The translations under genes were made by a program, and so were the position numbers. A stretch of DNA of 63,688 nucleotides, counting the filler, from Eremomyces bilateralis CBS 781.70 (Eukaryota): the NCBI GenBank assembly GCA_010015585.1. It is 5 parts of 5 records of this genome, joined end to end, with 100 filler letters (N's around TTAATTAATTAA, not from the genome) between each part and the next. Parts side by side here need not be neighbours in the genome. Positions count along the whole stretch, not along the records: positions 21,095 to 39,390 come from ML975205.1; 4 more parts are not named here. One strand, given 5' to 3'. Shown piece by piece: positions 20,995 through 58,219 of the stretch (its first letter is position 1; each line of letters starts with the position of its first letter). Below the pieces are notes generated by a model. The model saw only the letters and a list, made by a program, of their open reading frames with translations, had not been told where the DNA came from and did no database searches.

Positions 20995-21411
20995 NNNNNN
21001 NNNNNNNNNNNNNNNNNNNNNNNNNNNNNNNNNNNNNNTTAATTAATTAANNNNNNNNNNNNNNNNNNNNNNNNNNNNNNNNNNNNNNNNNNNNTAGGCC
21101 TCGGATGGGTGCGGGTGGGTTGGGTTGGGGTTCTCTTGGCGTGCGGGTGGGGTGGGGTGGGGTTCTCCAAACCTGGATTCCCAACCCAACCCCACCCGCA
21201 TGCCAAGCAACCCAAACCCAACCCCACCCGCAGGCAACCAGGGACAAACCCAACCCCACCCCATGCCAAGAAACCTTGGGGGAACCGCGGGGTGGGGTTT
21301 TCTGCGGGTTCAACCCCAACCGCAAGATGGGTTGGGTTTCTTGGCGCATCTGATGGGTTTCTTGGCATTATTAAAAGGGCTTTAGACTAGATTAGGCTAG
21401 TAGCATATAGA

Positions 21412-24836: not shown

Positions 24837-27738
24837 ATGGCCTCTTTATACACTGATTCAGAGCCGACTGAGCCCCAGTCAAGCTTTACCGAAGCAAGGT
24901 CTGCGATCGAATCGTCCGACGGAATCGGTGTCGATGGTCTCCGGCAGTATACGATCAAAAACACGACATATTATGTTGTTGACCGAGATAACCCCGCGCC
25001 GTTTGACGATTGGTGGAAGAGAACCCAATTCTGCCTTAGGAACAAGGCTAGAGACCCTGACAAGCGGTTTAAGCCAACGTGGGATAGAAAAGTGGTTCGT
25101 TCTGATTACTGGTCCTACTTCGAAGAAATCGCCGAGTCTGCTACAGGGGTTGTTAAGATCCATTGTATCCGCTGTGGTTTTGTTGGGGGCCACCCAGCTG
25201 TAATCACTGAGAGGCTAGACGGCAGTCTCGGATCACGTACTGGCAATTCGACAATGAAGGCGCACCTTCGGTCAGGAAATTGTATGCAGAAAGCTGATAA
25301 CAAGGGCCTAACCCAGTTGACATTTCACGATATTACCGATCCAAGGCGCAAGGTAAGAGACTACTATATGAACTAGTATATACACTTTCCCTAATAGAGT
25401 TTAGGCTAGAGTTGATAGGACCCGAGCTGCCCAATTCCTTGAGGGACAACGGGTTACCTCGAAGCATTTCTTGGATTGTCTGGCTCGAATGATTGTTTCT
25501 CGGGGTATCCCTATGAACTTCTTCGAGGATCCTGAAGTCCAGCGGTCCTATCTCTGCCTAACGACTACTGAACCACCATTTAGTAACCCAAAGAGTCTGC
25601 GGAATCGGATCTTCACTCTCTATGAATCCGCGACGAAGGCAACTCGGGATGATCTTGCCCACCCTGATAGCATCAAACAGAAAATTGGTCTCGCGGTCGA
25701 TGGCTGGTCCGCAAAGTCTGGCCGTACAGGCTATCTTGGAATTCTCGCCTATTGGACCTCGACGGACATGAAATGGCATGAGGCGCTTTTAGCGTTCACG
25801 CCAACTGAGGCTAGGCATTCCGGTCGGGACCTAGCGGAGATGATCATGCAGACACTACTCAAGTTTCGAATTACTGACCGTCTACGCTCAATCACTGCAG
25901 ACAATGCTTCGTCAAATGGCACGATGGTCGCGTCTATCAACGACGAGTTGAAATTTCTGTTGTCGTCACATGGAAGCTTAGACCCGGTCGTATCAATCCC
26001 TTGTATCTCCCATGTTATTCAGCTGGTCCAGGGAGAACTCCTCAAAGGCCTCAAGTGCGTGGCGGAGAATTCGGAGATTATCCGAAACTGGGATGAAAAG
26101 GAGTTTGTGAGGGAGCAGCGCGCAATTGCGTCGTATGGGGCGGTGCCAATTACACTTTGGAAGGTGAGTCTCTACTCCTTGTAAAATGTGGTAGTCAATG
26201 TGGTAGTCATTACTAATATAGTCTAGGCTCGACAGACCGCTAAACACATTGTGGCATCGGAGAAACGACTGAGAGATTTTCTTAAGATCCAGCAGGAGCT
26301 TATCGACCAGGAACACCCGACCCTGGACAAACAGGAGCTCTTCTGGGTTAGCCTGCTCCGGCAACCCCTGCGTCCACTACAAGACGTCAAAACACGATGG
26401 GACTCGACTACGCAGATGCTTGTTCGACTCCGCATTCTTCGCCAACCCCTTGACCGTTACTGGCGTCAGGTTTCGAAGCAGTCGATGGCCCTCGATCCTC
26501 AACAATGGGATATCATCGAATACCTTATTGATATGACCGCTCCACTAAATGCATTTACGCAGTCAATTGGCAGATCGTCGTCCCCATCAATCCACAGAGT
26601 CTACACGATCTACGATACTACATTCGGCCATCTTGAATCTACGATCGATAGACTTAAGAAGAAGCATGCTTCGTGGAAGATTAGCCTCAAGGAGAGCTTG
26701 GTGAATGCCGTAGAGAAGTTGAAGAAGTACTATAGCAGGACTAGTGTTTTTACAGCTCTTGATGAAGCATACGCGTTCTCTTTCCTACTCAGTCCTAGGA
26801 CACGAAATACTGCTTTCACTTCATCGGCTTGGAAAGGGAGGGCTAATAACCGGGGACAAAATTACCGAACAGTCTACATGGGGAGACTGCGGGATCATTG
26901 GGAGGAACACTACAAGGTTGACAACCCAACCCAATCAGAAGAGGGAGCAGCTTATACACGCGGAATTGACTATGTGCGTCAACGGTTGCATCAAGATGTT
27001 CAGCCCACCGAGGGTTCAAACTCTCGATCAATGGACGAGCTAGCAAGATATTTTGACTCTTGTAAGTACATATTCCCCTTTATTCATACTCCGATCTCTT
27101 ACTAATCTTTTAATATAGGCTCGTCAAACAATATTGAACCTCTCGAAGCTTGGCGCGAGAATGGAAACTACATAGCCTACCCAACAGTTGCTCGGATGGC
27201 TCGCGACTACCTTTGTTCTCCGGCAGCATCCGTTGGCGTCGAGCGCCTATTTTTCCTTGCTCGCTGTCAGTCAGAGTTCAATCGGGAGTATAAGAGTGAA
27301 ACACTCGAGGCGATCATGGTGGCCAAGGCGAGGTTGAAGCTTGACTTTCAGATAGAATCCGAGCGTCTCCAAGAGCTGGAGGAAGAGCTAGGTGATATCG
27401 GTGATGCTGATACGTCTACGCTAGACACACTGGTTATAGAATCGGACACTCGTAAGAGGCATACTAATAGTATCCTGCGCGCGACGGGTGAAGGGGAAAT
27501 TCATTTGATCAGCGACGGTGAAGATAGTGAGGATGATGTTGAGGATGACGGGAGGGATAGCGATCCTAATACTGGGGAAGATAGGAGGGACGCTGATCAG
27601 AGCGATGGTCTAGGGGAACCAGACGAGACACTAGATGAGTTAGGTGAAGATTACGATACAGCTGGAGTAGCAAAGAGGACACGAAGTAGTACTATGGCAA
27701 GTGAACCTCAAGACCGTTCGAAGCGGAATAGGTTATAG
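24837..27738 (+). CDS. hAT transposase (~909 aa, exons 24837-25352, 25405-26163, 26227-27061, 27119-27738)
   Basis: BED-like finger (CIRC...HLRSGNC), motifs AVDGWS, ITADNASSN, CISH and TRWDST, and dimerisation domain SVGVERLF. All introns are GT-AG and in frame, with no stops. Confidence 0.93.
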
Positions 27739-28451: not shown

Positions 28452-29408
28452 TTAATATACACAGTACGTACTTTTGCATAAAGCACATGCCGCAGCATTA
28501 CACTCCGGACAATGAAAAGTAAATTTAGTGGGAGTCTCTCCACAAAAGATGCAGCTTGCTTCTCCTTTCTTTTTGGGCCAGCCTAGCTGGGGATGAATGC
28601 AATCCCTCGTAGGATGCTGAGTCGCGGGTTGCCCTGGCTTGGCTTGTCGACGCTCCGCGGCTTCTCGTATGCTTGCCCAATTCTGTCGAATTGCGTCCTG
28701 CTTCTCCTCTATCAATATGGACTTAAGCCGCTCCTTCGCAGCCATCTCTCGCTCTTGTCTTGCTCTCTTCGCAGACTCTTCAGACTTTCGTTCCGCCTCC
28801 ATTTCTTTCTGTTTGTGCAACCGTTCTATCGCCGCATGTTCTTGTTCTTCCCTAGCCTTTCGTGCCACCTCCCGTGACCGATATTCCGCCATTCTTTCTC
28901 TCAATTCCCTGTCTCGCGCCAGTCGCTCTTCCTCAGCTCTCCTGCGTGACGCCCTTTCCTCTGCTGCTTTTGCATCCTGCTCTGCTTGTTCCCTAGCGGC
29001 TCGTTGTTCCTCTGCCATCCTACGTGCCCGCTCGGCTTCTCGTCTGAGCTCTTTATTTCGGCGCTGTGTCTCTTGCCATATGCGATATTGGACCCATTCT
29101 CCTCGTAATTGTGGGTAATATGCGTCATATTCCGAGCGCTTTGAAGCATCACGGAGACATTCATAGGCCTCCCTAATCTGACCTGGCGCTTTAGCTTCTC
29201 TCTGCTGTTTAGAATTCTTAGTACTTACCCTGCGAAAATCGTGAGCATCAGTGATCTTCCCTGGAGCTTGTTTGTCTGGATGATGCTTTTTTGCCAGTAA
29301 ATGGTGTGCCCTTTTTATGTCCTGGAACGTTGCTGTTTGCTGTAGACCAAGGGCTAAGTAATAGTCTGACATTTGTGGACGCTCTAGCTCTGGTATAGTC
29401 TCATCCAT
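28452..29408 (-). CDS. DnaJ-domain protein with coiled coil and C-terminal Cys-rich region
   Basis: DYYLALGL...HHPDKQ J-domain. Probable in-frame 51-nt intron after DFRR. C-terminal CxxC pairs. Confidence 0.85.
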   Translation of the reverse strand: MDETIPELERPQMSDYYLALGLQQTATFQDIKRAHHLLAKKHHPDKQAPGKITDAHDFRRVSTKNSKQQREAKAPGQIREAYECLRDASKRSEYDAYYPQLRGEWVQYRIWQETQRRNKELRREAERARRMAEEQRAAREQAEQDAKAAEERASRRRAEEERLARDRELRERMAEYRSREVARKAREEQEHAAIERLHKQKEMEAERKSEESAKRARQEREMAAKERLKSILIEEKQDAIRQNWASIREAAERRQAKPGQPATQHPTRDCIHPQLGWPKKKGEASCIFCGETPTKFTFHCPECNAAACALCKSTYCVY

Positions 29409-29683
29409 ATTTTACAACAAATGCGCATGGCATACCCTAGCAATAACTTTAATCACTGCAACGGTCAAACTTGTGTAGTAGTTAAAACAAGCGTCTATGG
29501 CGGTTCGCGCTTGTTCAGAGTTGATCTGAACCTATTTCTACCGTAAGCAATATCTACTCTACTATGTTTTCTTTTCTGGCTTCTATCCAATCACACACAC
29601 CATATACGTGTATTATCATGATTGGCCGCTGAAGACGCATTCCAGCTTTTCCACAAGCCACTACATATGTATCACCATAGCCC

Positions 29684-29916
29684 TGACACGGTCTGGATGC
29701 GCAAGGTCTGCGATTACCAAGTTCCATTAATCTAAACTGAAGAGAGAGAGAGAGAGAGAGAAGAAATCTCCCGGCACCTTTGTGCGCGAGATAGCGACTC
29801 TCCTCTCCAATGCCCTACTGCTGTGTTACCATGTTTGTTTGCTTCTCTGATATAATCCACCAGCCACGTCTTCAGCCACAACCAAGGGAACAGGCCGCAG
29901 GCCTGGGACCATAACA
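29684..29916 (-). repeat. Solo LTR family B (no matching TSD)
   Basis: Reverse complement of family B. Flanks AGCCC and CTAAA differ. Confidence 0.9.
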
Positions 29917-30269
29917 CTAAAGAACGACTCGTCGAAGAAGATCAGAGTAAACGTAATCACTACGGAGACAATAGATATAGAAGAGTTATGGGACGAGACA
30001 CTTGCCAAGGATGATCAGTACTAGGTTCTCCTTTAGGCCACGAATGAAAAGGCTAGGCGGGTACTATTATAGTACAAGCACTTAAAGCTATCAATTGTCA
30101 TGGGCTGTAAGGACATAAGCCTCCTGTAGTCATGTGACAGGGTCACATGACTAGAACATAGAGAATTAGTATATATGGTTTCCAACCCCAATGACCCCTG
30201 TTTGGGATCATTGTGATCTTTTATGGTCCAATGGTATTAGCGCGGAGGGTTGGTCACGTGTCATTACAG

Positions 30270-30870
30270 TAGAGGAGGACCGTTAAAAAGAGAATTCCTA
30301 TGTAAATGGGAAGGCTATGCGGAACCGACGTAGGAAGCTGCGTAGTATATCGAGGATACAGTAGCGCTAGATGATTACGAACAGAAGACAGGGTGCGATA
30401 TCTTCAATCCTCTTAACCTAGATAATCCCCATTTCTTGCGGAGGAGGGGGCATTGTTATGGTCCCAAGCCTGGGACCTTGGTTGTGGCTAAAGACGTGGC
30501 TGGTGGATTATATCAGAGAAGCAAACAAACATGGTAACAGCAGTATGTGACAGTCTTGGGCTTCGCCCAGTCTGTGTGTTGTGGCCTTGCGGCCTAAGGC
30601 AGAAGGGATGGGTAGACTGTTTGCCCACAGATGTAAATAGCAGATCGCAGTAAGAGAGATCTTCTCCTTCTCTCTTTAGCAATTCAACAGCGTTACCAGC
30701 TTACCAAATCCTTCGTGGTTTGGGCCCATGACACAGTAGGGCATTGGAGAGGAGAGTCGCTATCTCGCGCACAAAGGTGCCGGGAGATTCCTTCTCTCTC
30801 TCTCTCTCTCTCTTCAGTTTAGATTAATGGAACTTGGTAATCGCAGACATTGCGCATCCAGACCGTGTCA
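30270..30870 (+). mobile_element. 3' end of a chromoviral Ty3/gypsy element: chromodomain relic, PPT and 3' LTR family B (30454-30870) with nested LTR A
   Basis: Chromodomain with stops, REFLCKWEGYAEPT*E...ALDDYE. The PPT GGAGGAGGGGG lies just before TGTTATGG. Confidence 0.85.
30546..30733 (+). repeat. Solo LTR family A (188 bp) nested in LTR B
   Basis: TG...CA ends and TSD CAGTA at 30541-45 and 30734-38. Confidence 0.95.
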
Positions 30871-31102
30871 TAGATAGATCAATCAATCACGTATCAATAC
30901 TTCTGCATGAGGCACTGTAGATATAGCGCCGCAGCCTTGCGAACCGACTTAACGTTTCGCCATGCCTCCGACCATAGACAACTCTCCGAAAACACCTGGA
31001 GAATTGGCCACTGATAGGGCATGGTCATAACAGGTCTCCCTAGTGGCAGTGACTTGCCGCTTTCACTAAAGTTGAACTACCAAAACATCGACGAGCGCGA
31101 AG

Positions 31103-31965
31103 ATGGACGGCGAGAACGGGTACGATAGACACCACAGCGAGATCGACGTCGATGGGTTCAATGAGGGTGGACCTGCGAAAACTCCGCTGGCTACGAGCCG
31201 TGCTCAAAGCCCGTATACCCAACACCCTGACATCGATTTCAACGGCTTGAGCTGGCCCAGTAAGTAGCACGCCGGCACGGAGGCAAGATGGCTTACGAGT
31301 ATAAGGCAAGGGCGCCCGTGAGAGGAAGGAAGCTACCGAGCAGGAGAAGGAAGAGCGGCTGTCAAATCTATCCGGTGCCGTAAGGAAAATACTGGACTGC
31401 ATTGGCGAAGATCCCGACCGTGAAGGCCTACGGAATACACCGGATCGCTATGCAAAAGCGCTCCTCTTCTTTACGAAAGGCTACGAAGAAAACTTGCGCG
31501 AAATTGTGAACGGCGCCGTATTCCACGAAGACCACGACGAGCTCGTAATCGTAAAGGATATCGAACTCTTCTCCCTGTGCGAGCATCACCTCGTGCCCTT
31601 CACCGGAAAAGTATGCAAAAAATCACCCCGGTATTTGCGCACTTCATCTAACTCTCAAATAGATGCATATTGGCTATATCCCCAACCGCCGAGTGATCGG
31701 GCTCTCTAAGCTCGCCAGAATCGCCGAGATGTTCTCCCGCCGGCTCCAGGTGCAGGAACGGCTCACGAAACAGGTAGCTCTCGCCCTTTCCGAGGTTCTC
31801 TATCCGCAAGGCATTGCTGTCGTCATGGAGTCTAGCCATCTTTGTATGGTGACGCGTGGCATCCAGAAGACAGGGGCAACCACGACAACCAGCTGCATGC
31901 TCGGCTGCATGCGGTCGATGGCCAAAACCCGAGAAGAATTCTTGAATCTTATCAATCGGAAATAG
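31103..31965 (+). CDS. FOL2: GTP cyclohydrolase I (3 exons: 31103-31259, 31306-31610, 31663-31965)
   Basis: Motifs [55 protein letters not shown] and HLCM. The start codon is uncertain, and this may be a paralogue rather than the housekeeping copy. Confidence 0.92.
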
Positions 31966-33217
31966 AGCGTGTCATTTGTAGTATCATGCAATGGTCTGTC
32001 AGCGTAGTTATTGCTATGAATGGCGTTCGCGCCGGTGTTAATCTACTTAGGTAAGGCCCTTTAAGTCCTGAGAGTGATATACATCCTATTAATATTAGTG
32101 GCAATGGTACTGTCCCACTCTTCAGGCTCTCGATAACATCTACATTCGAACGTTCTGCTTCGCTCCGCCGCTCATCTGTGTGAACTCTTAGCTCAGGTAT
32201 CAGGAAGAGTCAAGCTTCATGCCTCGTTCGACGTATCGTATCTATTTATAAGCGCTGCCCATGCCGCAGGGTGTTCCTGGGGAATGTCAAACATATCCGT
32301 AAGTAGAGCCAGGTTATCATGTATTGGCATGCGGGGTCATACTATCAAGCCTGATTTGTGTCGCCATGCGATTGGACGCGAAATATGCACCCCTCCTTAG
32401 GTCATCTATGTATCATCATCCCATTCCTGACCGGAATTCCACTGCTGGTTTGCACTCTGCGATGACGACGATGAAAGATCGCCGCCAGAAAAGATTTGGT
32501 GTCAACATAGCAATCAACCATCGATTGCTTCTGCTTTTCCGATCAGTTGATTCCCTAGGTACCCAAAGTAGCGTCAGCGGTGAGAGTAGCACTCTTGGAT
32601 GGGGGTTTGGATGTGCGCGATTGGGAAGGCGAAGGTGTGCATTTTCCTTGTAGGACTGAAATCAGGTTGACAAGGTGCTGGAGGTGGGACATTCGACCTT
32701 ATTCGCGCATCACCACGCACAATGCATCAAAAATTACAAGGTCAAATGTGTCGGTCGCTCTTTATGGACGAGGGTCCGTTATGGTGTATCTCGTCAGGAG
32801 ATGCACTCTTTCGGAATTATGTGCCGTAAGGAACAAAGCCTCTTTCGTCGAGGATAGGAAAGACCGATGCCGATACGGTGTACGAGGTCATGTTTCACGC
32901 AGATGTTACTGGGAAAAGATGCTGATGCATAGTAGAATGACGGCTGCTACAATTATCCTGTTGCTTTACTCTGCACGGAAGAATCTGACTGGGCTTCGAC
33001 TGACTACTCACAGATTTATAATGGACGTATGTCTGCTTCAGATCGACATCCGACGAATAGAGCACTAGGATCATAGTATCTGCAATCAGGTATAGTGCCG
33101 CAGGTTTCGCCTCTCGATGTAAACCGCTTCAATACGGCCGTTGACCTCAATAAGGCCCATATCAACCATTGTCGCCATTCCTAATGCGAAATACTCGCAC
33201 ACTCATGCCGAACGGAA

Positions 33218-36200
33218 ATGGCCACCCTTGACTCCCTAAAGCGGGCCCTTCGGCGAAAAACCAGAGCAACGGCATCGTCCTCGAAGCAGCCCTTGTCCGA
33301 CTCACAGTACAGCGCCGGCTTCGATATCTTGCTCCGAGACTCGGGATGGGTGACATACCGGGATTTTATCATCCCTCAACTATCTCAGCTGCTAAGCCTT
33401 CTCGTTAACTCGCGTGTCCATATCTCGGCACTAGAAATCGGACCGGGCCCGAAGAGCCTCCTTGGACATCTTCCCAGCGGTCTAAAACGGAAGGTCAGGA
33501 GATACACTGCATTCGAGCCCAATGGCTTGTTTGCTACGAGGTTGGAAGAATGGCTTAGCTCGGCCCCCGAGTCAGAGTCCCCGCTGCCCTGTCTGGAAAG
33601 GGCGCCCGACATCCACCGAATTCCCTTCGTCCTGGACGACAACATAGGTAGCGTTACCGGTACCGGTACGAGTGATGAGGAAAAATACGATATCATCCTA
33701 TTCTGCCACAGCATGTATGGCATGAAGCCCAAACACAGGGTGATCGAACGTGCGCTAGAAATGCTTGTTAAGCGGCCACAAGGCGGAGTGGTCGCGATTT
33801 TCCATCGCGACGGGGCCCTGGACCTCGACGGCTTGGTGTGCTATCGAACGGCTTCTTTCCCTACCGGAGTCGTTCGCGTGGCAAATGACGACGAGGTACT
33901 AGATAGTTTTGCTCCTTTCGTCGCGGGGTTTGTCGTGCAGGACGTGGACGTGGACAAGGCTATCCGAGTTGAGTGGCGTAAGGTGTGCCGCGCCTTGAGC
34001 CGTCGCGAGGATGCCTATCCAGATCATCTCTTGTTCAGCGCGCCCAACGTCATGGCGGCCTTTACCCAACATGCGACCACGTTGCCAGAGCTGACGGCGC
34101 AGGTGCCATTGGTGAAAGAGGGCAAGATAGTTAAAAACCGGGAGGCTCGCCTTCACCGCCCCGCCTCGATTATTAGGCCGACAGAGGTCCGACACGTCCA
34201 GCAGTGCGTTCAATGGGCTCTTAAGCACGGGGTCGGCCTGACCGTCGTCGGTGGGGGTCACAGCGGCCATTGTCTCTGGCCCAACGTTGTTTCGGTCGAC
34301 ATGGGCGCCTTTGATCAAGTACACATTGTCTCAGCGGGGGAGGATGGAGGGGATTCTGGTTCCGATTCTGGTTCCTTGGTCGTCGCCGAGGCCGGCTGCA
34401 AGACGGTGGATATCGTCCGCAAGGCCATGGCGGCGGGTGTGACAGTGCCCCTAGGGGCTCGCCCAAGTGTCGGTGCGGGGCTGTGGCTACAAGGCGGCAT
34501 CGGGCACCTGGCTAGGTTGTATGGGCTCGCGTGCGACGCCATTGTAGGTGCCATTATGGTTAGCGTCGACTCTAGCCAGGTCCTCTGCGTCGGCCATGTA
34601 CCAAGCCAACACCGGCCGGCCGGTGCCGTTCGCCCAGATAACGAACCCGATCTATTATGGGCGATGAAAGGCGCCGGGACCAACTTTGGCATCGTGGTCA
34701 GTGTGATTTTCAAGGCTTACACAGCTCCGACCTACCTGACTCGAAACTGGGTTGTCCCGCTAAGTGACAACCTCGAGGCCCGGTTCAGACTCAGTGACTT
34801 TGATAAACTCGTCGCCAGGAAGCTCCCCCGGAGCTGTTCTGCAGACGCGTATCTGTACTGGGACGCTGGCCAGCTGCGTCTTGGCATGACCATGTTCGAA
34901 TCTTTCACGACAAGGCTCACCTCTGCAAAACCCACGCTCACGCCTGTAGGTGAAATTTGGGGGCCGGGAGACGATTCCAAGGCCGTAGACGGCATCGGTT
35001 TGTTTGAGGGCGAGATGTACATGTCCGGGATGCACGGCGGGCACGGCAGCGGCAAGACCTCCTCGTTCAAGAGATGTTTATTTTTAAAAAACATCGGAGA
35101 AGCGAACGTCGCCGACCGATTGGTGGCGGCCGTTGGGACTCGTCCCTCGCCACTCTGCTATCTCCATCTCTTGCAAGGTGGCGGAGCGGTCGGCGACGTT
35201 GCGGCCGATGCCACTGCTTTCGGCTGTCGGGACTGGGACTTTGCCTGCGTGATAACTGGTGTCTGGCCCTGCGACCAAGATGGTACCGAAGCCGCACTAT
35301 CTGCCGTGCGGTGGGTTTACAACGTCGCCGGGGACTTGTTGTCCCTGAGTAGCGGAGCTTACGGCGCCGACCTTGGGCCGGACCCCAGAGACGCCGTGCT
35401 GGCGGCCAAGGCTTTTGGACCGAACCGGCCGCGCCTGGCCCGTCTCAAACACAGCTTGGACCCGCGTAATGTACTGGCTTATGCCTGCCCACTCCCGAAA
35501 GTGCAGATGCAACAGAAGCTTATCATTCTTGTCACGGGCGAAAGCTGCGCCGGCAAGGACTATTGTGCCGACGTCTGGGTCTCCGTGTTCATGAAAAGCG
35601 CTCACAAAAGCCTCACGGCGCGTGCGGTCAGCATTAGCGATGCGATCAAGCGAGAATACGCGGCGGCTACCGGTGCCGACTTGAGCCTCCTGCTTGGGAA
35701 CCGTGCCTACAAGGAGCAGCACCGCCCGGCGCTCACGACATATTTCCGAGAACGGGCGCGGCAACGTCCTCGGCTGCCACAGGAACATTTTCTGAGCGTC
35801 GTGTCTGGCGCCGTCGACGTGGACGTGCTGCTAATCACCGGGATGAGGGACGAGGCGCCGGTCGCAACCTTGTCGCATTTGGTGCCAGACAGCAGGCTTA
35901 TCGAGGTTCACGTCCAAGCGAGTGAACAGACGCGGCGGGTTCGCCGAGGGTGCCACATCGGTGACAACGGTGGTGATGACTACGGTGACGACAACAAGGA
36001 CAACAACAGTCGCAAGTCGAGTTCAACAGCTTGGGATTACTGTCATAGTTTCACCATCGACAACGACACGACCGGGAATAAGGCGGCAACACGGTTTGCC
36101 GAACGATACCTGCTTCCCTTCCTCCACGAGGACCTGCAGCGACTGGCCGACATGGTGCGCCAGATACCCGACTACCCGCGCCAAGGCATCGAGTTCTGTC

Positions 36201-36736
36201 ACGTGCTCGGCATCGAGTTCTGTCACGTGCTCGGCATCTCCCAGAAGCCCGGTGGGCTGGCCCTGTGTACGTCGCTGCTGAAAACCCACTTCGCCGGTGA
36301 CTGGGCCAAAGTCGATGCGGTGGTGTGTTGCGAGGCCGGCGGGTTTGTCTATGCGTCGGCGTTGGCCTCGTGGGTCAATGTGCCATTGGTGCTGACTCGG
36401 GGCGCTGGCAAGCTCCCTCCACCCACCGTGTCGGTTATCAAGCTCTCATCGCATATCTCTTCTTTAGAATCCAACGATTCGACGGAGAAGCGGATCGAAA
36501 TGGAACGGGATGTCCTACCCAGGGGGGGTTTCGTGGTAGTGGTAGACGATGTACTCTCCACCGGGAAGACGCTCTGTGCGGTGTTACAGCTTCTGGATAA
36601 AGATGGAATCGGCTCCGATGATGTCAGCATAATGACCGTGGCCGAGTTTCCGGTTCACCGTGGCCGGGAACTATTGCGCCGGCGTGGGTTTGGCAGAATC
36701 AATATTCAAAGCCTTTTAGTCTTTGGCGGTGCTTAG
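33218..36736 (+). CDS. Multidomain enzyme, 1172 aa: SAM methyltransferase-like + FAD-linked (BBE/VAO-type) oxidase + phosphomevalonate/NMP-kinase-like P-loop + type I phosphoribosyltransferase
   Basis: LEIGPGP/FCHSMY (methyltransferase), GGGHSG and GAGTNFGIV...LKHSLDPRNVL (FAD oxidase), VTGESCAGKDY...AYKEQHR (kinase) and VVVDDVLSTGKTL (PRPP-binding loop). Intronless. Confidence 0.88.
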   Translation: MATLDSLKRALRRKTRATASSSKQPLSDSQYSAGFDILLRDSGWVTYRDFIIPQLSQLLSLLVNSRVHISALEIGPGPKSLLGHLPSGLKRKVRRYTAFEPNGLFATRLEEWLSSAPESESPLPCLERAPDIHRIPFVLDDNIGSVTGTGTSDEEKYDIILFCHSMYGMKPKHRVIERALEMLVKRPQGGVVAIFHRDGALDLDGLVCYRTASFPTGVVRVANDDEVLDSFAPFVAGFVVQDVDVDKAIRVEWRKVCRALSRREDAYPDHLLFSAPNVMAAFTQHATTLPELTAQVPLVKEGKIVKNREARLHRPASIIRPTEVRHVQQCVQWALKHGVGLTVVGGGHSGHCLWPNVVSVDMGAFDQVHIVSAGEDGGDSGSDSGSLVVAEAGCKTVDIVRKAMAAGVTVPLGARPSVGAGLWLQGGIGHLARLYGLACDAIVGAIMVSVDSSQVLCVGHVPSQHRPAGAVRPDNEPDLLWAMKGAGTNFGIVVSVIFKAYTAPTYLTRNWVVPLSDNLEARFRLSDFDKLVARKLPRSCSADAYLYWDAGQLRLGMTMFESFTTRLTSAKPTLTPVGEIWGPGDDSKAVDGIGLFEGEMYMSGMHGGHGSGKTSSFKRCLFLKNIGEANVADRLVAAVGTRPSPLCYLHLLQGGGAVGDVAADATAFGCRDWDFACVITGVWPCDQDGTEAALSAVRWVYNVAGDLLSLSSGAYGADLGPDPRDAVLAAKAFGPNRPRLARLKHSLDPRNVLAYACPLPKVQMQQKLIILVTGESCAGKDYCADVWVSVFMKSAHKSLTARAVSISDAIKREYAAATGADLSLLLGNRAYKEQHRPALTTYFRERARQRPRLPQEHFLSVVSGAVDVDVLLITGMRDEAPVATLSHLVPDSRLIEVHVQASEQTRRVRRGCHIGDNGGDDYGDDNKDNNSRKSSSTAWDYCHSFTIDNDTTGNKAATRFAERYLLPFLHEDLQRLADMVRQIPDYPRQGIEFCHVLGIEFCHVLGISQKPGGLALCTSLLKTHFAGDWAKVDAVVCCEAGGFVYASALASWVNVPLVLTRGAGKLPPPTVSVIKLSSHISSLESNDSTEKRIEMERDVLPRGGFVVVVDDVLSTGKTLCAVLQLLDKDGIGSDDVSIMTVAEFPVHRGRELLRRRGFGRINIQSLLVFGGA

Positions 36737-36756
36737 CAAAGGACGGAAAAGATCTT

Positions 36757-36860
36757 AGAGAGAGAGAGAGAGAGATTCATACGCCCGTCAGGCCTCTCTG
36801 TGAGGCCCATGTGGGGAACTAGCTAGGATGACTAATTACATGATGGTTGCCTTGTGTCTA
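36757..36860 (-). repeat. SINE-like family D copy
   Basis: (GA)n followed by TTCATACGCCCGTCAGGCCTC... Confidence 0.85.
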
Positions 36861-39067
36861 GTGCCTGGAGGAACGAAGTGCCTGGAGGAACGAAGTGCCG
36901 TAAGGTCTGAGTGCCTGGAGGAACGAAGTTCCGTAAGGTCTTTGTGGACGCCTGAGGGCCAACTTTTCTCCCAACTCAAACTTAAATCACATGATATTCA
37001 CGTGAGTTTCACGTGATTTCCGTTCCTTCACCCCAACCTTCGTCGACATCGCGATCGCCGCCCGATTTAGCCCGTATGATATGATTCTAACGAGCTATGA
37101 AACTACACGCTCGGCATCGTTCACTCGCCGTTCGCTGACACCGCCTGATTCTGACCCCGCGCCTGACTGAGTCCGATCGTCGGGACTCAATCCGATCGTT
37201 GAGACTTGACTCTGATTGTCAAGACTGACTCCGATCATAAAGACTCGAGAAAAAGAGGAGGGATGCGAGGGAAAAAAAAGAGGCGAAGTCTCCCCATCAT
37301 TAAGCGATCAATGTTACAAAGGGTCGGTTTTCAATGTCTCTCGCTCTATTTGCGCTCTGCTAGCCAATCTACTTTGTATATCTAGGCCGCGTTTACTTCC
37401 CCTTAATGTACCGTCCATCCCTCTTCTGTTGACCAGTCCCAACGTTCCGCGTCTTGAATCATCCCCTCGCTCAGCCGTTCTAGCCTATTCTCGGCGGCGA
37501 CCATAGTCTCGGGCACTCGATTACCGATAATGTCCCTTTCTCGCGCTCGAGACAGAAGCATAATCCCATCTAGGGATGGGCAGCGCGATAGTTGTACGTA
37601 TAGGCCGTAGGCATCGCATTAACTGGGAACGGCCTAGCCATCGATGTTCGTCGTCCTCGCGCCGCGAAGTTCTAGCGCCACTCGGTCTAACGTCTTTCCT
37701 TACACCTTATAATCCGTGGAGGCGAACGCCGCTGCGCACGGTAATCCTCGCCGGCTGACGTCGTGCATCTGCCACGGCCGCTTTCTCTGGGAGTCGATTT
37801 TGACACTGACGGGTGCCAGGAGGATGGTGCCGGCTGGCATGCCCACGAAATCGTAGTCTCTCGTCGTCTCGGACGCCAGCACGATCCCGGCCGGAGGCCC
37901 GAAGTGGAGCATGGTATCGGCGTTGACGCGATGCCCGGGGAATTTCAGGTCGAGGATGACGTCTAACGCCGTATAGCGGGCGCCATTGACCAGCTTCAGG
38001 CCTTGGTGGGTGTTTTGATTTACGGTGATGGGCATCCCCTGGACGAACATAAAGATAGCGGGGACGGGGATGGCGCTGTCGTCCCCCTGACTTAACAGCA
38101 TTAGGGCCTCCTCCTCCGTAGGCTGGCCATCTTTCCACTTGTGCTCGGACATGAAAATCCGAAGCACGCTTTGCCTTTGGCGTTGGAAGGACAGCGTGGC
38201 TTCGACGTTCAGATTCCAGCGGTTCCGATTCAGCGGCGTGATAACCGTGATGCCGGACTCCCATGGGATACGTCGACCTTCCTGGTAGCACGTGTCGTTC
38301 AGAAAATCCATATCGGACTGATCTTGTACGCCGTGCCGGATCCGCCTGAGGAGTTGCTGGAGTCGTGGATCTCCGGCGGCACGGACTTGTTCGTCGAGCA
38401 TCACGACCGTAGTAAACTTGTTCCACAGCGCGTGCGCTTTATCGTGCTGGTGCCTCTGCTCTGCTCGGAAAGCTGTATCGTCGGTCTACGCAATAACTTG
38501 GCTGGGGAGAAGGATGGACCGCTCCTGGACCGGGCGGAACTGGCGGAAATCCCCGCAGAACACGATAATCGGGATCCCGCTAAAGTCGTCCGCATACCCT
38601 CGAAGTCGGTACAGCTGTTCGTTTACTATATATAGCGTCCGCGCACCCAGTATACTGACCTCGTCGATAATGAGCAGGAGCTTTTCCTGCCATACGGCCC
38701 GGCTTCGTCCATCGACGCGGAGATTAGTTGAACTCCTAGGCGCGAATCTCTCCAGGTCCGTACTCCGACCCACCGACCGAGTCGTGTCTTTCGAGAACCC
38801 GCACGCGGAATGGATAGTGACCCCATCAATATTGGCTACCGCCGTTCCCGAGGTCGCTGTAACCAGTAGGCGGTGCGGGATCCCCTTCCTCGCGAACAGC
38901 GCCGCGACCGCTCCGATGATCCGTGATTTTCCCGTCCCGCCCTCACCTCCAATAAATTGGCAGAGCTGGGGAACTCCGGACTCGTCGCGGTGGACCCGGT
39001 CTAGCTGGCGGCAGATAAGTCGAAATACGATACTCTGCTTTCGATTCAAGGTAAACGACTCCTCTGC
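36861..39067 (-). mobile_element. Helitron-like element 3' part: degraded PIF1 helicase and terminal repeats
   Basis: Walker A GEGGTGKS, IIDEVS, GDFRQFRPV, LDEQVRA..D, LVNGA and ASTDYKV, broken by stops. GCCTGGAGGAACGAAG occurs three times at 36863-36928. Confidence 0.85.
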
Positions 39068-39390
39068 TGTGAAGATTCACTACCTGCATGAGCCATTTGG
39101 GCCCTTTGGGCCCAGATCGGATTATCTTTTATCCTTACCCCGCTTTTGAGGTATATAATACCCCGCACGAATCCTACCAACTCTCGACGGTAGCGATTCG
39201 CGCTGTTACACATTTACACGATTACATACAATACAAATACGTTGATACAGACTTCTTGATCTATTCAGTTGCCTACAGCAATCCAATATCACCCAGGACT
39301 ACCAATCCTTGACACTCGAATCGCTCTTCTTGGCTGTACAACGCTGAGCAGAGTAGAGAATGTCTGACAACACCATCAATCCCCGGGAGA
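39068..39390 (+). mobile_element. Probable 5' LTR and gag start of a retrotransposon truncating the helicase
   Basis: Helicase homology stops abruptly at TGTGAAG (39068). A possible LTR end CCTTGACA lies near 39313 and an ATG near 39360, then the gap. Confidence 0.45.
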
Positions 39391-40532: not shown

Positions 40533-43488
40533 ATGGCCCGCGTCAGCCTCATTCCTGCACTTCTAGTATCACCAAACTCTAGCGACGCCTTCGAATGGAG
40601 CTTCCCTCCTAACCTGGAGTCTGAGATAACCACCCTAGCCGCCTGGTGTCAAGTCAAGCAGAAGCAGAGGGCCCCCCTTTCTTTTTCCATCGAGGATAGT
40701 AAAGATGATCTGGAGGAGTCCACTGACGACGAAGAATGCACTAATCTGCTCATTCCACCATCCCTAGATGGCGACACGCGAATTAAAAAGGACTTTCTCG
40801 ACCGACTCGCAGAACTACTTTGCTATAGAAAAGACCCTTCATTGATCACGAGCACGGCGTTCATCTATAGTGAGATGGAGGTGACTATTGTGGCTGCTCG
40901 AAACTCGACCTCGGGCGGGAAAGCTTGGTCGGACGAGGATATCAAGATGCTCGAATACTTGGCCGAAGTCCTCGAGAGAGTTTCAGCTGACGGTTGGTGT
41001 CTCTGTCGAAACCTGCCTCCCGTGTCGATAAACTGACTTCTTGCATAGACACTTTCGAGCCTCACCCGCTTCCGGCGCTGCAGAGCACCTTAGTGGAATA
41101 TTACAGTCAAAGAATTCGGCACCACGCGCAGAATGCCATGTCTATCGAAAAGGGAAACACGGGATTGAATTTCTTCAAAGACGGCGTGTGTAATGACGTC
41201 GTGTCCGGCAATCTAGCTGTATACGACTTTGCTAGGGGTGTTGAGGCCATATCCTATAGTACGGACTTTTATACCGAACTGAAGGTCAACCTGACACCCG
41301 AAAACCTTGGTCGCGTCGTGGAGGAATTGGCGCATATTCGAAGGCCGATGCAAGGTGCAGGAGCCTTTTTGCATGTCGCTCAGCAATGCCCTGGCTTTCG
41401 CAACGTTAAAATCGTCTTACTCAATAGTCTCCCGGCAAGGAAGGTCAAGATATGGCCGTTGCCCAAGGAAGAGTTTCCAGTCACCCCGCGGTTAGAACGG
41501 AAATTCCGCAACGAAGTTAAGAAGCGCAAGAACCTCCATGCCGAGATGGTGCTAATGGCCTATCTTCTTGGCTCTAGGGGTCTCTGCTCGGAAGTTTTCC
41601 CGTATCTTGGGGTTAGCAAGAAGACGTGCCTTCTTTGCGGGTACTTACTTCGGGAAATAGGCTTTTTCGAAACTCGAGGGAACCACGGGAAATGTTATTC
41701 GCAATGGACATTTCCCCGCACACTACGGACGAACCCTGAGGTAGCCGAGAGACTACGGAGGGCTGTTCAGCGTCTGAGAGACATTCTTTGGGATGAAGGG
41801 ATAAAGTGCGACGTGTCTCACCGGGGTGCAGAGAAGGAATCAGTGATGGCGGTCCCGGTTCCGACCAGCGACAGGAGGAAGACGACGCTTTTTAATAGCA
41901 TAGTCGAGGACCCTAGATTTCTTGCGAGAGAGACAGAGTGGTTGGCCATGTCTTACAAGCGCGATAGAGAAGCCAAGTAAGTGGGAGAGATTGCTTGTTA
42001 GTTCGCCCTTGGTTATCCTCGATGCTAATATGGACTAGCATGACTCCTAGCTACGACAAACACATTGTTGAGTCCTCTCATGCACGGAATGGCGCCAGTG
42101 TACCAGAAGTTAATACTGGAGGGCTCAAAGGAAAAAAAGCCGACGCTGTTAGCCCAACAGTCTGCGCTTTCTGCAAGGCCACCTGCGAATTCGCCCATAT
42201 TTGTAAAAAATATGGGGTTGCCGCCTACTGTACTCCCGATTGCTACCGATCCGACTGGCATCGACACAAATTTTCTTGCAGCTTGGGCAGACCGACCGAC
42301 GCCACGGATTATTTGGTGCTCGCTTGTCACGCAAACAAGTTTCCCCTTGAAGACGACGTAGCGAATAGGTATGGCTTTATGTACTTTGCTTCCGGGCATG
42401 ATCGGTGGAGGCTCTTTAAGCTTTACCGCCGGCTTGTAGTCGACTGGAGGATTAACGAAGACGAGCTGCGCAGTGCGGTAGAGCGGAACAAGCTTCAGGA
42501 GATGCTTACGTTTCGATGCTTGCAAACCGGGGACCCTGGCATGCTAAGAGACATGCAGTGGCTTAAGAGCGAGGAGGGATTTGGAACCAACAGCAAGGGG
42601 CCGGAACTTGCTGTTATCTTCGAGGCGGCCCAGAGGGAGCTGTTAAGTCCTGACGAAAATGAGGTGCCGATCGTTGAACTTCAGCCTTTGGAAAAGAGAA
42701 AGGCGTTTGTCTTCTACGTTCAGATCCGGAATGGATTCAAGCCTGATGTGGATGAGGATAATTGGATCTCATTGGGATTTTGTACGGCCGCGGACCCCCA
42801 ATCAGAACAGCGACTCGTTTCCGTATATGGATGGCTTGTCGAGCGATGCCCGTTTGATGAGTTCTGGAATGCCATGGTAGAGTCGAGGATGGTGGAATTG
42901 TTTAGGAAATATGGGCTTGCGGACCGAATATTGCACCTGCGCAATTTCAAGAACTTCATGGCCATTGTCAAGAAACGGCATCAGAGCGTGTGGGAGCTTA
43001 AGCGATTTACACTCATGAACGTAGCTGATCCGTTCCGAGCCGTTGTAGTCGACTACGGATTCATGAACTGCAAGGATGCACGCCAACGGATGCAGCTTCG
43101 AGCGATATATCAGGAATACTTTGAACGGGGAGAGGATGAGATGAGACTCCATGAAGCATGCATTGCCGGAAAACTGGGGAGCTTCCTAGAGTCGGTCTTA
43201 GGAAGTCTTGCGGTGCGCCCGGACCTTCTTCGGAATTCTTATCCCTTGGAAAACTGCCCTCTTATGGGCATGGTGACCGATTCTGTTATAGTGTGCCCAA
43301 AGTCTGTTTTGGACCAGGTGAATGCTTTTGAGAGGGGTGATGGGGAGGAGACAATGGTAATTCCGGATGCCGAGGACGAGGCGATGATAAGATGTATTTA
43401 CGATCGTGCTGCGTTTCTAGGGACGGAAGTGAGAAAGCGGTATTATTCTGGATCAGACGGCAAAGTTGTTACCCAGTTGGCGTGGTAG
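40533..43488 (+). CDS. OTT_1508-like deaminase-fold + MYND zinc-finger protein (~945 aa, exons 40533-40992, 41049-41976, 42039-43488)
   Basis: FLDRLAELL, deaminase signature LHAEM...YLGVSKKTCLLC and MYND-like CAFC...YCTPDCYRSDWHRHKFSC. Both introns are GT-AG and in frame. Confidence 0.8.
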
Positions 43489-46468: not shown

Positions 46469-47323
46469 CTACAGGTCGCTTTGTCTCTTCCCTGTGACAG
46501 CCCAGGCCTCGAACTTGACGCCACCCTCTCTAGAAACCTCTTCCTTGACAGCCTCATTAACAGCGGCTGGCCAGCTGGCAATCTCCTGATCATTCCACCC
46601 CTCTTTGGCGCTGCGTGTGAAGTCACTGAGCATAAACCCGCGTAGACCATCGATCTCGTCGCCTTCGCATATTACACTGACAACTTCCTGCTTGACATCT
46701 ATAAAACCCGTAGCGCGTACCATTTCAGCAACAAAGCCATCATGCATGAATTCTGTCCGAGGGACCTTCATCGGTTCGGAATCGGCGCGCACCTTCTTCT
46801 GGGCGGCATGGATGATTTCTGCCGCGCCGAAGCGCTTCCAGACAGTCACAACAAGTGTACCGTTAGGCTGGAGAGTGCGATGCATCTCCTTGAAGCAGAC
46901 TAGGGCGTCTGTGAATGTGAAGGCGCTGATATTGGAGATGCTGACCGTGAAGGTTTTGTCCGTATACGGAAGCTTGTGGCTATCGATGACGGCCGCATGG
47001 ACGTGCTGCCAACCTTGGCCCTTGATGCGAGCCTCTGCAGCCTCAACCATGGCCGGCACGTTGTCGTTGGCATCGATGCGGTTGGGCTCATGACCTAGGT
47101 GCGCGATGACAGCCGCTGCTGCTATGGCTGGCCCACAGGCATCGTCGTTAATGATGCTACTTGTATCAAGAAGGCTAGGGTTCTGCGCGAGGTACTTGGC
47201 AATAACCTTGGCAGTACTGTTTCCTGTCGAAAGAGTGTAATTTGTAGCCAGCTCTGTAAAGTATTTGGGGAAAGTACGACGCGGTGAGTGACCCTCCATA
47301 AACTTGCTGGCAGCGGGATTCAT
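46469..47323 (-). CDS. Class I SAM-dependent methyltransferase (UbiE-like)
   Basis: Motif I DDACGP, IDANDNVPAMV, LPYTDKTF and EMHRTLQPNG. First plausible ATG at 47323. Confidence 0.85.
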   Translation of the reverse strand: MNPAASKFMEGHSPRRTFPKYFTELATNYTLSTGNSTAKVIAKYLAQNPSLLDTSSIINDDACGPAIAAAAVIAHLGHEPNRIDANDNVPAMVEAAEARIKGQGWQHVHAAVIDSHKLPYTDKTFTVSISNISAFTFTDALVCFKEMHRTLQPNGTLVVTVWKRFGAAEIIHAAQKKVRADSEPMKVPRTEFMHDGFVAEMVRATGFIDVKQEVVSVICEGDEIDGLRGFMLSDFTRSAKEGWNDQEIASWPAAVNEAVKEEVSREGGVKFEAWAVTGKRQSDL

Positions 47324-47556
47324 CTTGGGATTCTTTGTGTTATAGTAGGTAAGCAGTTTGTGTGAGTTTAGGCGAACGGCGATGGTCAAATACGAGGCTG
47401 CAGGTGTGAGATAAATAGCGGTTTCGCTCAATCAGGTGATTGGGGCAGCGACATAGTGGGAAAATACTGTTAAATTCCAAAAGAGCGTAGATAGATTGAC
47501 CTTAGTCTTAATAAGCGTAAAAACTTCGAGAATACGCCCATATTTAATTAAGTTCT

Positions 47557-53500: not shown

Positions 53501-54876
53501 CACACCCATAGCCCGACGTGTGTAAAGTACTCTATTAACGGGCAAACACGAAGGAATCAGGACCTGTGCCGGTTTAAGGCGCCGTGGAAATTGGTAGAGA
53601 GGACGGCGTTTACCGAGGAGGGAGTGTTGCAGATTCGGCGGACGCATAGCATGGTGAATCGATGGAATAAGGCGATCGCGGTAGGGCTGCGTCATAACCA
53701 TGATATTTCGTTCATCGGAACGCAGTGTAAGACCATGGCTCTCGTCTTTTACCTGACGAACTATGCAACCAAAGTCGAGGATCCGGTGTCAAAACGGGTG
53801 GCCGCAGCGGCAGAACTCATCTCGGCTCATAACGGTGCGACGGCGGAGCGGCAGGAGGGCGCAACGGATGGCCCGATAACGGGCAACGGTAGTGAGAACC
53901 AAACACGCCAGTTTTTGATGAGAATCGCGAACCGGATCTTCACGGAGCGGCCGTTATCACAGGTAGAAGTCGTCTCTAACCTGCTGGGCTACCCCAGGGA
54001 ATTTACTAGTAATGATGCCTGGTCGTTCGTTAACGTCAGTTCCCTATACTGGCAAATTTTCCGCCGATGGCCGCATCTGCAACGCGAGAGTGGTATAGAC
54101 TCTAGAGACGAGGTAGTTAAGGAGACGGTATTCTTGCACGAGGCGGGGGTAAGAATATCTCTAGTGCAGGCATACCCATTCCGTGGCCGAGTCTTCCAAG
54201 AGCTTTGCCTCTATGATTATATGTCGGTAGTCAAGTTGAAGCGAAAGGGTAAGGGCGTAGGTACGTGGGGGGAGATACCATTAGACCATGCCTGGTCTCC
54301 GTCGCGGTCGTGGGTACAGGTGCTACGAAAGTCCGGCGAGCATGCGATGGTCTGCTTTGACGGTTACCTAAGCAGGAACCTGACTGAAGAAAGTGAGGAC
54401 TACTATAAGAGGTATGTGCAGCCCCGCTCTCGGCATGATCGGACTCGTCTCTATATTTATGTGAGAGACAAGACACAATGATGCTTAGGAAGGTTGACGT
54501 TTTGGTATACGTAGGGCGGCTGTTCAGCATCTTGCCATTTTTGTGCCGTGGGAGTCCTTTTGGGGCGATACAACGGGTGACATCAACACCATTTGGGAGA
54601 GTCGAAAGCAGGCCCTGCCTCAGCGGATGGCATTTGTCGCCGATAATATCCAACTACTACACCGGTCGGCCGAAGATGCAAAGCGGGATGCCAAACAGTG
54701 GGCTGCGATGTCCGGAGAAACAGATCCTTTCGCCGATACGGCCGATTTAGAAGATAGGGGAGATGATGGGAATGAAGGACCAAGGGCAACGTACCGGTCG
54801 GACAGTCTCGGCAACGCGATACGACTCATTGACGTCTTAAGGAACGCAATAGGGGCCAATCAGGTTACGGCCGGCT
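50600..54876 (+). pseudogene. Helitron-like Rep (HUH/Y2) gene, RIP-mutated, interrupted by LTR C and truncated by the gap
   Basis: Motifs HVKGHITVFP, FPTLFPLGRGG, PAIWFTLNPND, YFGAVETNERGSLHVYGLLW (HUH), QIHTHSPTCVKY, NHDISF and YLTNYATK (Y2), with TAG/TAA stops. Confidence 0.88.
52895..53066 (+). repeat. Solo LTR family C inserted in Rep
   Basis: TSD CCTAT at 52890-94 and 53067-71. Confidence 0.95.
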
Positions 54877-55139: not shown

Positions 55140-55298
55140 GAAGAGCAGGAATCCTACGAAAGCAGGCTGTTCCAGCAGCTATTTTATATGATTTACAATG
55201 ATGATCTCTTCCCCAAAAAGGGAGATAAAAAGGAGTATAGAATCGAATACAGAATGAAACAGTGCTGAAATACCAAGAACCAAAGATATCCTGTGACA
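55140..55298. repeat. LTR-like fragment family E
   Basis: Homologous to 28154-28307 and ends TGTGACA. Confidence 0.75.
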
Positions 55299-57805: not shown

Positions 57806-58219
57806 TTGGTGTCTAAAACAAATCATTTGCTAAATTAGATGCTATTTAACAGAGCCCGTTTTGGCAGAGCCCGTTTTGACAGACCTGTATACATGAAAAT
57901 CGTACATAACATCGGAACTCCTAAGCTGCTTGCCTATCATTATTAAGGTAAGAGTTTTTCTAGGGTTAGGCCTTGTCTACTTCGCAGCTGGCAGGTTTAA
58001 GAAGCAGGGACCAGGTGGGCGTTTTGGCTTTTCTATTATTAGAAATCTGCCAGAACGGCCAATGTCTACTACTCACTGGCAGGTTCGGAAGCTGCAGGTT
58101 CTTACTCTGTAGTCATGTTGCCAAGTCAAGATGTGTGACTTCGCGTAATAGCTTCAAGTTCCAAACTGACCTCTCTTATTAGCCATCCACCCTTCCCTTT
58201 TCATAACTATTTTATCATC

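Follow-up and report, generated by a model that had tools for sequence, protein, structure and literature searches.

The stretch of DNA analysed here, called the window below, is 63,688 nucleotides long and comes from Eremomyces bilateralis CBS 781.70 (assembly GCA_010015585.1); it consists of five parts, from five records of this genome, joined by N linkers. Contig C57 carries a gene for GTP cyclohydrolase I (GCH I) followed by a gene for a protein—the fusion, hereafter—that joins a methyltransferase, an oxidase, a kinase and a phosphoribosyltransferase (PRT) in one polypeptide. We find that the two genes form a real, transcribed and conserved unit with an uncharacterised four-domain enzyme, and that this unit is most likely a small accessory pathway diverting GTP into a modified pteridine riboside. 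We estimate at roughly 0.55, slightly better than even, the probability that its product is an N-methylated, oxidised pterin with a ribose derived from phosphoribosyl pyrophosphate (PRPP). A preliminary description of the window had noticed two intact, co-oriented genes about 1.25 kb apart among transposons, which agrees with what we observe: both genes are on the plus strand, 1,252 nt apart, with open frames and repeats on both flanks. Of its interpretation, the accessory pathway without backbone enzyme and the pterin branch are kept, and the analogy with 7-deazapurine clusters finds no support.

The pairing of GCH I with the fusion goes far beyond chance. In 77 related loci from metagenomes, GCH I lies at most 2.7 kb from the fusion in 22 cases (16 divergent, 4 in tandem and 2 convergent), for a chance expectation of about 4 in 10,000 per locus, estimated for a genome of about 30 Mb with one or two GCH I genes. 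The linkage is found in 17 of 52 groups after collapsing the loci at 97% DNA identity, in 17 of the 41 loci whose upstream sequence reaches 3 kb, and in 10 of the 24 whose flanks reach 3.5 kb on the upstream side and 1.5 kb on the downstream side. Strong as it is, the link is optional: within one and the same 97%-identity group, L017 and L021 have a GCH I gene, and L014 and L044 are devoid of it over 10 kb on each side. In the tree of the fusion the GCH I label does not cluster (128 of 500 shuffles gave a value as low), the neighbours being unknown for many of the unlabelled rows. Conserved co-localisation, one of the checks suggested by the preliminary description, is thus found in many other organisms. 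No third conserved partner emerged when 5,943 open reading frames (ORFs) of the flanks were compared all against all, only GCH I and the 5' untranslated region (UTR) of the fusion being widely recurrent. By Pfam, 274 of the 303 candidate neighbour ORFs of 52 representative loci were scanned and are mostly unrelated accessory genes. These scans covered ORFs of at least 140 aa that are not split by introns.

GCH I is also found fused, at the N-terminal side, to the same polypeptide in P0236, P0284/P0313 and P0288, which share just 38–44% identity with one another; P0284/P0313 belongs to the diatom Odontella aurita, and its full-length sequence comes from a transcriptome set. Gene models of Rutstroemia and Aspergillus glaucus join GCH I to the fusion as well, and these may be merged neighbouring genes; a non-exhaustive search directed at long GCH I proteins returned the Rutstroemia model and missed that of A. 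glaucus. A distant homologue, P0289, carries instead FolB, the dihydroneopterin aldolase (Pfam E 2e-10, above cut-off), and with its first 225 residues as query all 7 PDB matches were to dihydroneopterin aldolases, each of them weak (E 0.09–0.64). GCH I and FolB are the only extra fused domains identified among 150 representatives. Because both are early enzymes of pterin synthesis and both are fused to this protein, these fusions point, from sequence, to a pterin substrate and not to 7-deazapurine chemistry; for the pterin branch of the products considered by the preliminary description, P0289 is the favourable observation. Besides, an unrelated protein of 779 aa, P0137, joins a short-chain dehydrogenase, PTPS and GCH I, and resembles a one-gene tetrahydrobiopterin pathway.

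The window GCH I matches the Pfam family GTP_cyclohydroI (PF01227) in exon 2 (E 1e-26) and exon 3 (E 5e-39); its spliced frame of 254 aa has no internal stop and contains the motifs CEHH and HLC, which we take to be zinc ligands. It is not the sole, nor the housekeeping, FOL2 of this genome, and in this respect the accessory character proposed earlier holds: a second GCH I gene, of the housekeeping type, stands on contig C23, with 75% identity over exon 2 and 72% DNA identity to the window copy. The two are alike in family and catalytic motifs, with 70–83% identity over the core. The C23 copy, however, is much extended at its N-terminus and has an MCM gene in its vicinity; that of the window is short, its alignment with the fusion-linked GCH I of other fungi beginning at residue 1. 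Resolution in the GCH I tree is poor, and the window copy is left unplaced; the linked copies are spread over several of its groups, which hints that linked GCH I might have been recruited repeatedly. One linked GCH I, in L087, is broken by stops.

The AlphaFold model of the fusion displays four folded domains (mean pLDDT 84), and Pfam detects FAD_binding_4 (E 3e-12), P-mevalo_kinase (E 1e-19) and Pribosyltran (E 4e-17), with a weak BBE match. Across a 72-row alignment that extends down to 27% identity, each of the four domains retains its cofactor motifs. The methyltransferase domain of the window copy has no Pfam match; homologues of the fusion match Methyltransf_23/12, and the model has the class I methyltransferase fold, with the S-adenosylmethionine (SAM)-binding fold and motifs present. 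Histamine N-methyltransferase, an enzyme that methylates a ring nitrogen, is the closest relative of solved structure: it came at the top of five matches in a profile search, weakly (E 0.42), ranked first with VIA (Z 16.5, rmsd 4.0, 243 aligned, just 1.0 above rank 2) and gave the best TM-scores with Foldseek (0.58–0.61), where it is seventh by E-value; O- and S-methyltransferases score close behind. The oxidase has for closest relatives by sequence 6-hydroxy-D-nicotine oxidase (6-HDNO) and EncM; its two-domain fold is complete (TM 0.80 with EncM over about 500 columns), and the flavin-bearing His348, in the motif GGGHS, is kept in 68 of the 69 rows with a residue at this place.

In the kinase domain, G779-K780-D781 is invariant (67 of 67 rows). 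The Pfam domain is above cut-off, and the score against the equivalog TIGR01223 is 27.9 bits for a cut-off of 188. In fungi the phosphorylation of mevalonate relies on an unrelated kinase. The domain has the phosphomevalonate kinase (PMVK) fold, and probably acts on a different substrate. The PRT likewise scores 79 bits against the adenine phosphoribosyltransferase (APRT) equivalog, below the cut-off of 125. Its PRPP motif is intact; the Glu-Tyr-Gly loop of APRT is turned family-wide into Ser-His/Asn-Ile, and the Arg of the DSRG motif of APRT is replaced throughout the family. Since the catalytic loop is replaced and the PRPP motif is kept, the alignment suggests that the acceptor is a base other than adenine. 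Split forms of the protein break at the linker between oxidase and kinase: the methyltransferase-oxidase half occurs alone in two examples (750–751 aa), and the kinase-PRT half, beginning at a Met of the linker, is 392–402 aa long. These half-length database proteins may be natural splits or broken genes. The ESM Atlas returned just the family's own clusters, and no structure.

Transcription was approached with one public run, X1, which is presumed to be RNA, no run being registered as such, and whose contigs show splicing; its depths were kept out of any ranking of genes. One X1 contig spans 30875–32144, with both GCH I introns removed exactly at the predicted borders. Other contigs cover the coding part of the fusion and skip the 65-nt intron upstream of it. 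This single run thus speaks for the transcription of both genes. They are on separate contigs, with 32170–32436 uncovered, which does not prove separate transcripts; an X1 joint 29719–36860, lying between repeats, was disregarded. The 100 nt upstream of the fusion ATG are 74–90% conserved in 29 related loci. A cluster of conserved "ORFs" upstream of the fusion, considered as a possible gene, was discarded as 5' UTR sequence, and the ORFs 32303–32650 and 32559–33065 have no Pfam match. If the X1 contigs belong to one transcript, the 5' leader of the fusion is about 700 nt long with 20 upstream ATGs (32455–33217).

Table 1. Features of the GCH I–fusion cassette (positions along the window)
Feature	Position	Strand	Basis or detail
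Accessory GCH I gene, 254 aa	31103..31965	+	Pfam, spliced frame, X1 contig splicing
GCH I exons	31103-31259, 31306-31610, 31663-31965	+	ATG 31103, stop 31963-31965
GCH I intron 1, 46 nt, GT..AG	31260..31305	+	joint 31259-31306 in X1 contig
GCH I intron 2, 52 nt, GT..AG	31611..31662	+	joint 31610-31663 in X1 contig
5' UTR intron of fusion, 65 nt, GT..AG	33090..33154	+	joint in X1 contig
Four-domain fusion gene, 1,172 aa, coding part intronless	33218..36736	+	ATG 33218, Pfam, X1 cover, AlphaFold
Class I SAM methyltransferase domain, aa 1-295	33218..34102	+	profile search, fold comparison
FAD-linked oxidase domain, VAO/BBE fold, aa 296-762	34103..35503	+	sequence, fold, conservation
Animal-type PMVK-like P-loop kinase domain, aa 763-965	35504..36112	+	PF04275; PDB 7xnd, 3ch4
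APRT-like type I PRT domain, aa 966-1172	36113..36733	+	equivalog score, PDB matches, alignment
Perfect 24-nt tandem duplication, +8 residues, PRT base-binding hood	36185..36232	+	repeat family D11
High-copy repeat elements, directly upstream of GCH I	29684..30870	.	repeat analysis
High-copy (AG)n-led repeat, 20 nt past fusion stop	36757..36858	.	repeat analysis

The pathway that we propose would start with the established activity of the GCH I family, the conversion of GTP to dihydroneopterin triphosphate, the extra GCH I boosting the flux and being optional. An aldolase would then trim phosphates and side chain to give 6-hydroxymethyl-dihydropterin; it is built into one distant homologue, and would here presumably be borrowed from folate metabolism. 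The methyltransferase, to judge from its fold, would N-methylate a ring nitrogen, and the histidyl-FAD oxidase could then oxidise the carbon beside it, yielding an oxo-pterin of the isoxanthopterin type. The APRT-derived domain would move ribose-5-phosphate from PRPP onto this pterin. The role of the kinase is the least clear: as it pairs with the PRT in one module, it might phosphorylate the ribosylated product, or else supply or regenerate PRPP. In two unrelated groups of loci that also have GCH I (L029:13429-15582, L083, L035, L063:19457-21718), a gene for a kinase-HAD-UPRTase fusion occurs about 6–6.5 kb from the four-domain fusion, and a relative, 35–41% identical, exists elsewhere in the Eremomyces genome (C24, L095). 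Such a gene could supply the missing phosphatase step.

Could the product be a known compound? Asperopterin A, an N8-methyl, 7-oxo, 6-hydroxymethyl pterin beta-ribofuranoside, would need GCH I, aldolase, methyltransferase, oxidase and ribosyl transferase, and in this respect fits the domain set; the pair A/B resembles our proposed product as a fungal isoxanthopterin glycoside and its aglycone. Among named compounds asperopterin A/B is the best candidate; that it is the exact product is nevertheless rather unlikely. The compound is presented, in reference titles of the review PMC6208954, as an isoxanthopterin glycoside of Aspergillus oryzae, the producer strain being given as unavailable there and in PMC6080641. 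The formula C8H9N5O3 is tabulated under the asperopterin name, from a tentative liquid chromatography-mass spectrometry assignment, in PMC11796263; by our own arithmetic it is isoxanthopterin plus CH2OH plus CH3, as for a methyl-hydroxymethyl aglycone. The passages on the compound in these papers name no genes. Should the proposal be right, the pair would be the first set of genes known to make a pterin riboside in a fungus, which might be the 50-year-old orphan asperopterin; it would also mean that the APRT and PMVK folds have been put to new use.

Several observations weigh against this pathway or its product. In 55 of the 77 loci, many of them on short contigs, the vicinity of the fusion showed no GCH I, and it is absent from 14 of the 24 loci with good flanks on both sides. 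The aldolase domain is present in one only of the 150 representatives listed, and a search of the genome for the FolB family returned nothing, although the genome has an HPPK-bearing gene of the FOL1 type; intron-split genes can be missed by such searches. The weak sequence match of the methyltransferase does not fix its substrate. As for asperopterin, the scheme gives the kinase no role, and no protein of A. oryzae/A. flavus or of section Flavi is present among the best 120 of 1,069 matches to the fusion or the best 120 of 1,221 in a second search, which used L060 as query, chosen to reach Aspergillus. More generally, pathway and product are predicted from the genes.

The window copy of the fusion is itself somewhat altered. 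Its lineage pN/pS is 0.29, against 0.24–0.42 for 10 relatives. On the unfavourable side, 531 columns are highly conserved and this copy departs from them 18 times, for a median of 9, a number of at least 18 being reached by 5 of 119 relatives, and six of these changes fall in the PRT domain, together with the insertion of 8 residues made by the 24-nt duplication. This insert, present in one of 72 alignment rows, is modelled as a low-confidence loop (pLDDT below 50 at 989–998 in the AlphaFold model). The PRT of this copy may consequently be impaired or weakened; the argument drawn from the family is independent of it. The same 24-nt duplication is present on C8:995396-996262 (L011:4897-5763), a partial duplicate 99% identical to positions 35990–36858 of the window, which comprises the PRT part of the fusion only and sits behind transposon sequence. 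Four alleles of this PRT-only copy are found in X1 contigs over 35990–36858, so that it seems to be transcribed. Another homologue of the fusion, L060/L061:12446, is broken by a stop inside the kinase domain.

Other explanations of the pair share a part of this evidence. The kinase-PRT module might merely supply precursors, by purine salvage to GTP or by providing PRPP, to the same pterin pathway; the product would then be a methylated, oxidised pterin without ribose, like asperopterin B. The best PRT matches are indeed all APRTs, the kinase-PRT half exists as a separate protein, and the kinase-HAD-UPRTase gene lies near the fusion in two locus groups. On the other hand, the family-wide replacement of the APRT catalytic loop and of the DSRG Arg does not fit salvage, for which another, more distant PRT match (C2, 33% identity) could serve, and the kinase resembles PMVK, not guanylate kinase; we therefore hold this to be rather unlikely. 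Slightly less likely still, oxidase and methyltransferase would build an isoxanthopterin base, a ring nitrogen would receive ribose-phosphate through the PRT, and further phosphorylation by the kinase would lead to the diphosphate, giving a pteridine mimic of guanosine nucleotides: a weapon, or an antiviral defence, based on a nucleotide analogue and spread horizontally among fungi, chytrids and algae. The pairing of the kinase with the PRT keeps this idea alive, and synthetic N8-deoxyribosides of 6-methyl-isoxanthopterin are described as guanine analogues in PMC3273825; we found in the literature no account of such mimics as a class of natural products. More improbable is a fusion whose product, a purine or nucleotide analogue, would poison GCH I, the linked GCH I being a copy for self-resistance. 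Resistance duplicates are common in fungal clusters; the optional presence of GCH I inside one 97%-identity group, and the spread of linked copies over several groups of the GCH I tree, would both agree with it. The tree is however poorly resolved, and a shared pathway would predict what is observed: GCH I joined to the same polypeptide in three distant homologues, and the enzyme that follows it in pterin synthesis in a fourth.

Farther from the pteridine riboside that we favour are three proposals to which we give little credence. Bacterial clusters for 7-deazapurine nucleosides such as toyocamycin and tubercidin pair GCH I with a phosphoribosyltransferase, and need QueD, QueE and usually QueC. 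The association of GCH I with a PRT, the core of such clusters, is what the window shares with them; the window system differs by its methyltransferase, its BBE-type oxidase and its link to an aldolase, and GCH I and FolB are the only extra fused domains in the 150 representatives. Searches of the genome gave no match for QueD/PTPS (control found in 10 of 14) nor for the preQ0 synthase QueC (13 of 14), within the limit that intron-split genes can be missed and that the FolB search came back empty too in spite of the FOL1-type gene, and none of the 274 neighbour ORFs scanned belongs to the QueD/QueC families. Radical SAM families are also absent from these 274 ORFs, no QueE-directed search of the genome having been made. 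A 7-deazapurine pathway, the analogy drawn in the preliminary description, thus appears very improbable. The same holds for a GCH I that would release a ring-opened aminopyrimidinone, later methylated and oxidised to a non-pterin heterocycle, as in the logic of toxoflavin or azaguanine. Bacterial pathways of this kind reportedly combine GCH I, methyltransferase, oxidase and PRT activities; the active site of the window GCH I is nonetheless canonical, its core is 70–83% identical to the housekeeping copy, and a fused aldolase presupposes that the pterin ring has been closed. Least credible of all, the two genes would have no function in common, being neighbours by chance or cargo decaying among accumulated transposons. 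The transposon-rich setting, the excess of changes at conserved sites in this copy and the broken copies elsewhere (stops in the L060 fusion and the L087 GCH I) speak for it, but it is largely refuted by the linkage counts, and the fusions, the open frames, the spliced contigs and the pN/pS of 0.29 speak against it too.

Compared with described systems, the unit works like a pteridine natural-product pathway, and is a member neither of the penilumamide nor of the deazapurine family. For the penilumamide (plm) cluster of Aspergillus flavipes, the proposed route from GTP to a methylated, oxidised pteridine relies on a GCH I, a dihydroneopterin aldolase, SAM methyltransferases and an FAD-dependent oxidoreductase (10.1101/2022.08.30.505926). 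As in the window pair, a dedicated GCH I is accompanied by an FAD oxidoreductase and a methyltransferase; in contrast, plm has three non-ribosomal peptide synthetases (NRPSs) and separate enzymes, whereas the window pair has no backbone enzyme and its tailoring activities are on one polypeptide. The kinase-PRT module stands on the window side only, the term "phosphoribosyl" being absent from the plm supplement (PMC10549243). By Pfam, no NRPS domain, such as would load the pterin acid in a lumazine peptide cluster of this type, occurs among 30 window ORFs or 274 neighbour ORFs, and no dihydroneopterin aldolase in the window, this enzyme being fused in one distant homologue only. One of the PRT matches, the adenine phosphopsicosyltransferase PDB 7f06, whose pathway we take to be that of angustmycin, offers a likeness of another kind, an APRT fold reused in specialised metabolism; it keeps adenine and changes the sugar, whereas the PRT of the fusion has a changed base-activating loop and a fused kinase. 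We found no published description of the GCH I–fusion system; the literature covered comprised few subscription journals, and the supplements of other papers were outside it.

The fusion is common, with 1,069 matches in a word-index database search (the best 120 of them 75–85% identical), and yet bears only automatic domain names; it contains no polyketide synthase, NRPS or terpene backbone to which cluster finders could key. Among the matches listed, the named fungi span six ascomycete classes; they include lichen fungi and food-associated Aspergillus and Penicillium species, with A. cristatus, A. chevalieri (three copies), A. glaucus and A. thermomutatus for the former genus. The search of representatives adds the chytrid Blyttiomyces, the green alga Mesostigma, the diatom Odontella and the ichthyosporean Pirum. 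Copies from different classes reach 89% identity, and approximately unbiased (AU) tests, run on a quick tree of 33 rows under the LG+G4 model, reject the monophyly of seven Lecanoromycete copies (p = 1e-4) and of five Leotiomycete copies (p = 4e-5). This distribution fits a horizontal transfer, which hidden paralogy or mislabelled metagenome bins could also mimic; if transfer and pathway are both real, a branch off folate metabolism would move between fungal classes. A prokaryotic or viral origin of the fusion was rejected, none of 96 prokaryotic and 44 viral candidate stretches being confirmed as relatives in pattern scans of contigs, which miss split or distant forms. Regarding vehicles, a Starship captain (DUF3435) and the homologue are about 7 kb apart in L023 (L023:20375-22325), and captain sequence is also near the homologue of L021 (L021:11112-11630). 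The Eremomyces genome is rich in such captains (46 DUF3435 matches on many contigs, several with open frames above 400 aa), none of the 46 being on C56 or C57. Among the other neighbours of the homologues are sequences akin to accessory or immunity genes, with NACHT-ankyrin, HET, TPD, DEDDh, OTT_1508, dsrm and T5orf172.

The cassette itself is flanked by the high-copy repeats of Table 1, with 50 and 129 matches in the genome; past the downstream one, a second repeated element leads to a PIF1/Helitron helicase remnant. Pfam detects remnants of hAT, PIF1/Helitron, copia, LINE and DDE elements within the window, which has no tRNA. The transposon proteins are at 1793–3487, 8434–9555, 13187–17335, 18871–21042, 27106–27738, 37700–39076 and 52357–52899, and comprise DDE transposases of the pogo/Tc5 and Tc1 types, a copia polyprotein, a LINE-type reverse transcriptase, hAT and a PIF1/Helitron helicase. 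Those of the other non-transposon ORFs that were tested do not recur beside the fusion in related loci. They are an OTT_1508-like deaminase (40991–41980, +) and a SAM methyltransferase (46469–47431, -), both beyond an assembly gap from the cassette, a GDSL hydrolase (55193–55933, -), a DUF7923/CCCH zinc finger protein (6277–7374, -), a DnaJ fragment (28452–29411, -) and an OrsD-like ORF (60239–60745, +). Long open frames of 351–506 aa, with no convincing Pfam match, are at 41968–43488, 53360–54481, 58139–59653 and 11651–12706.

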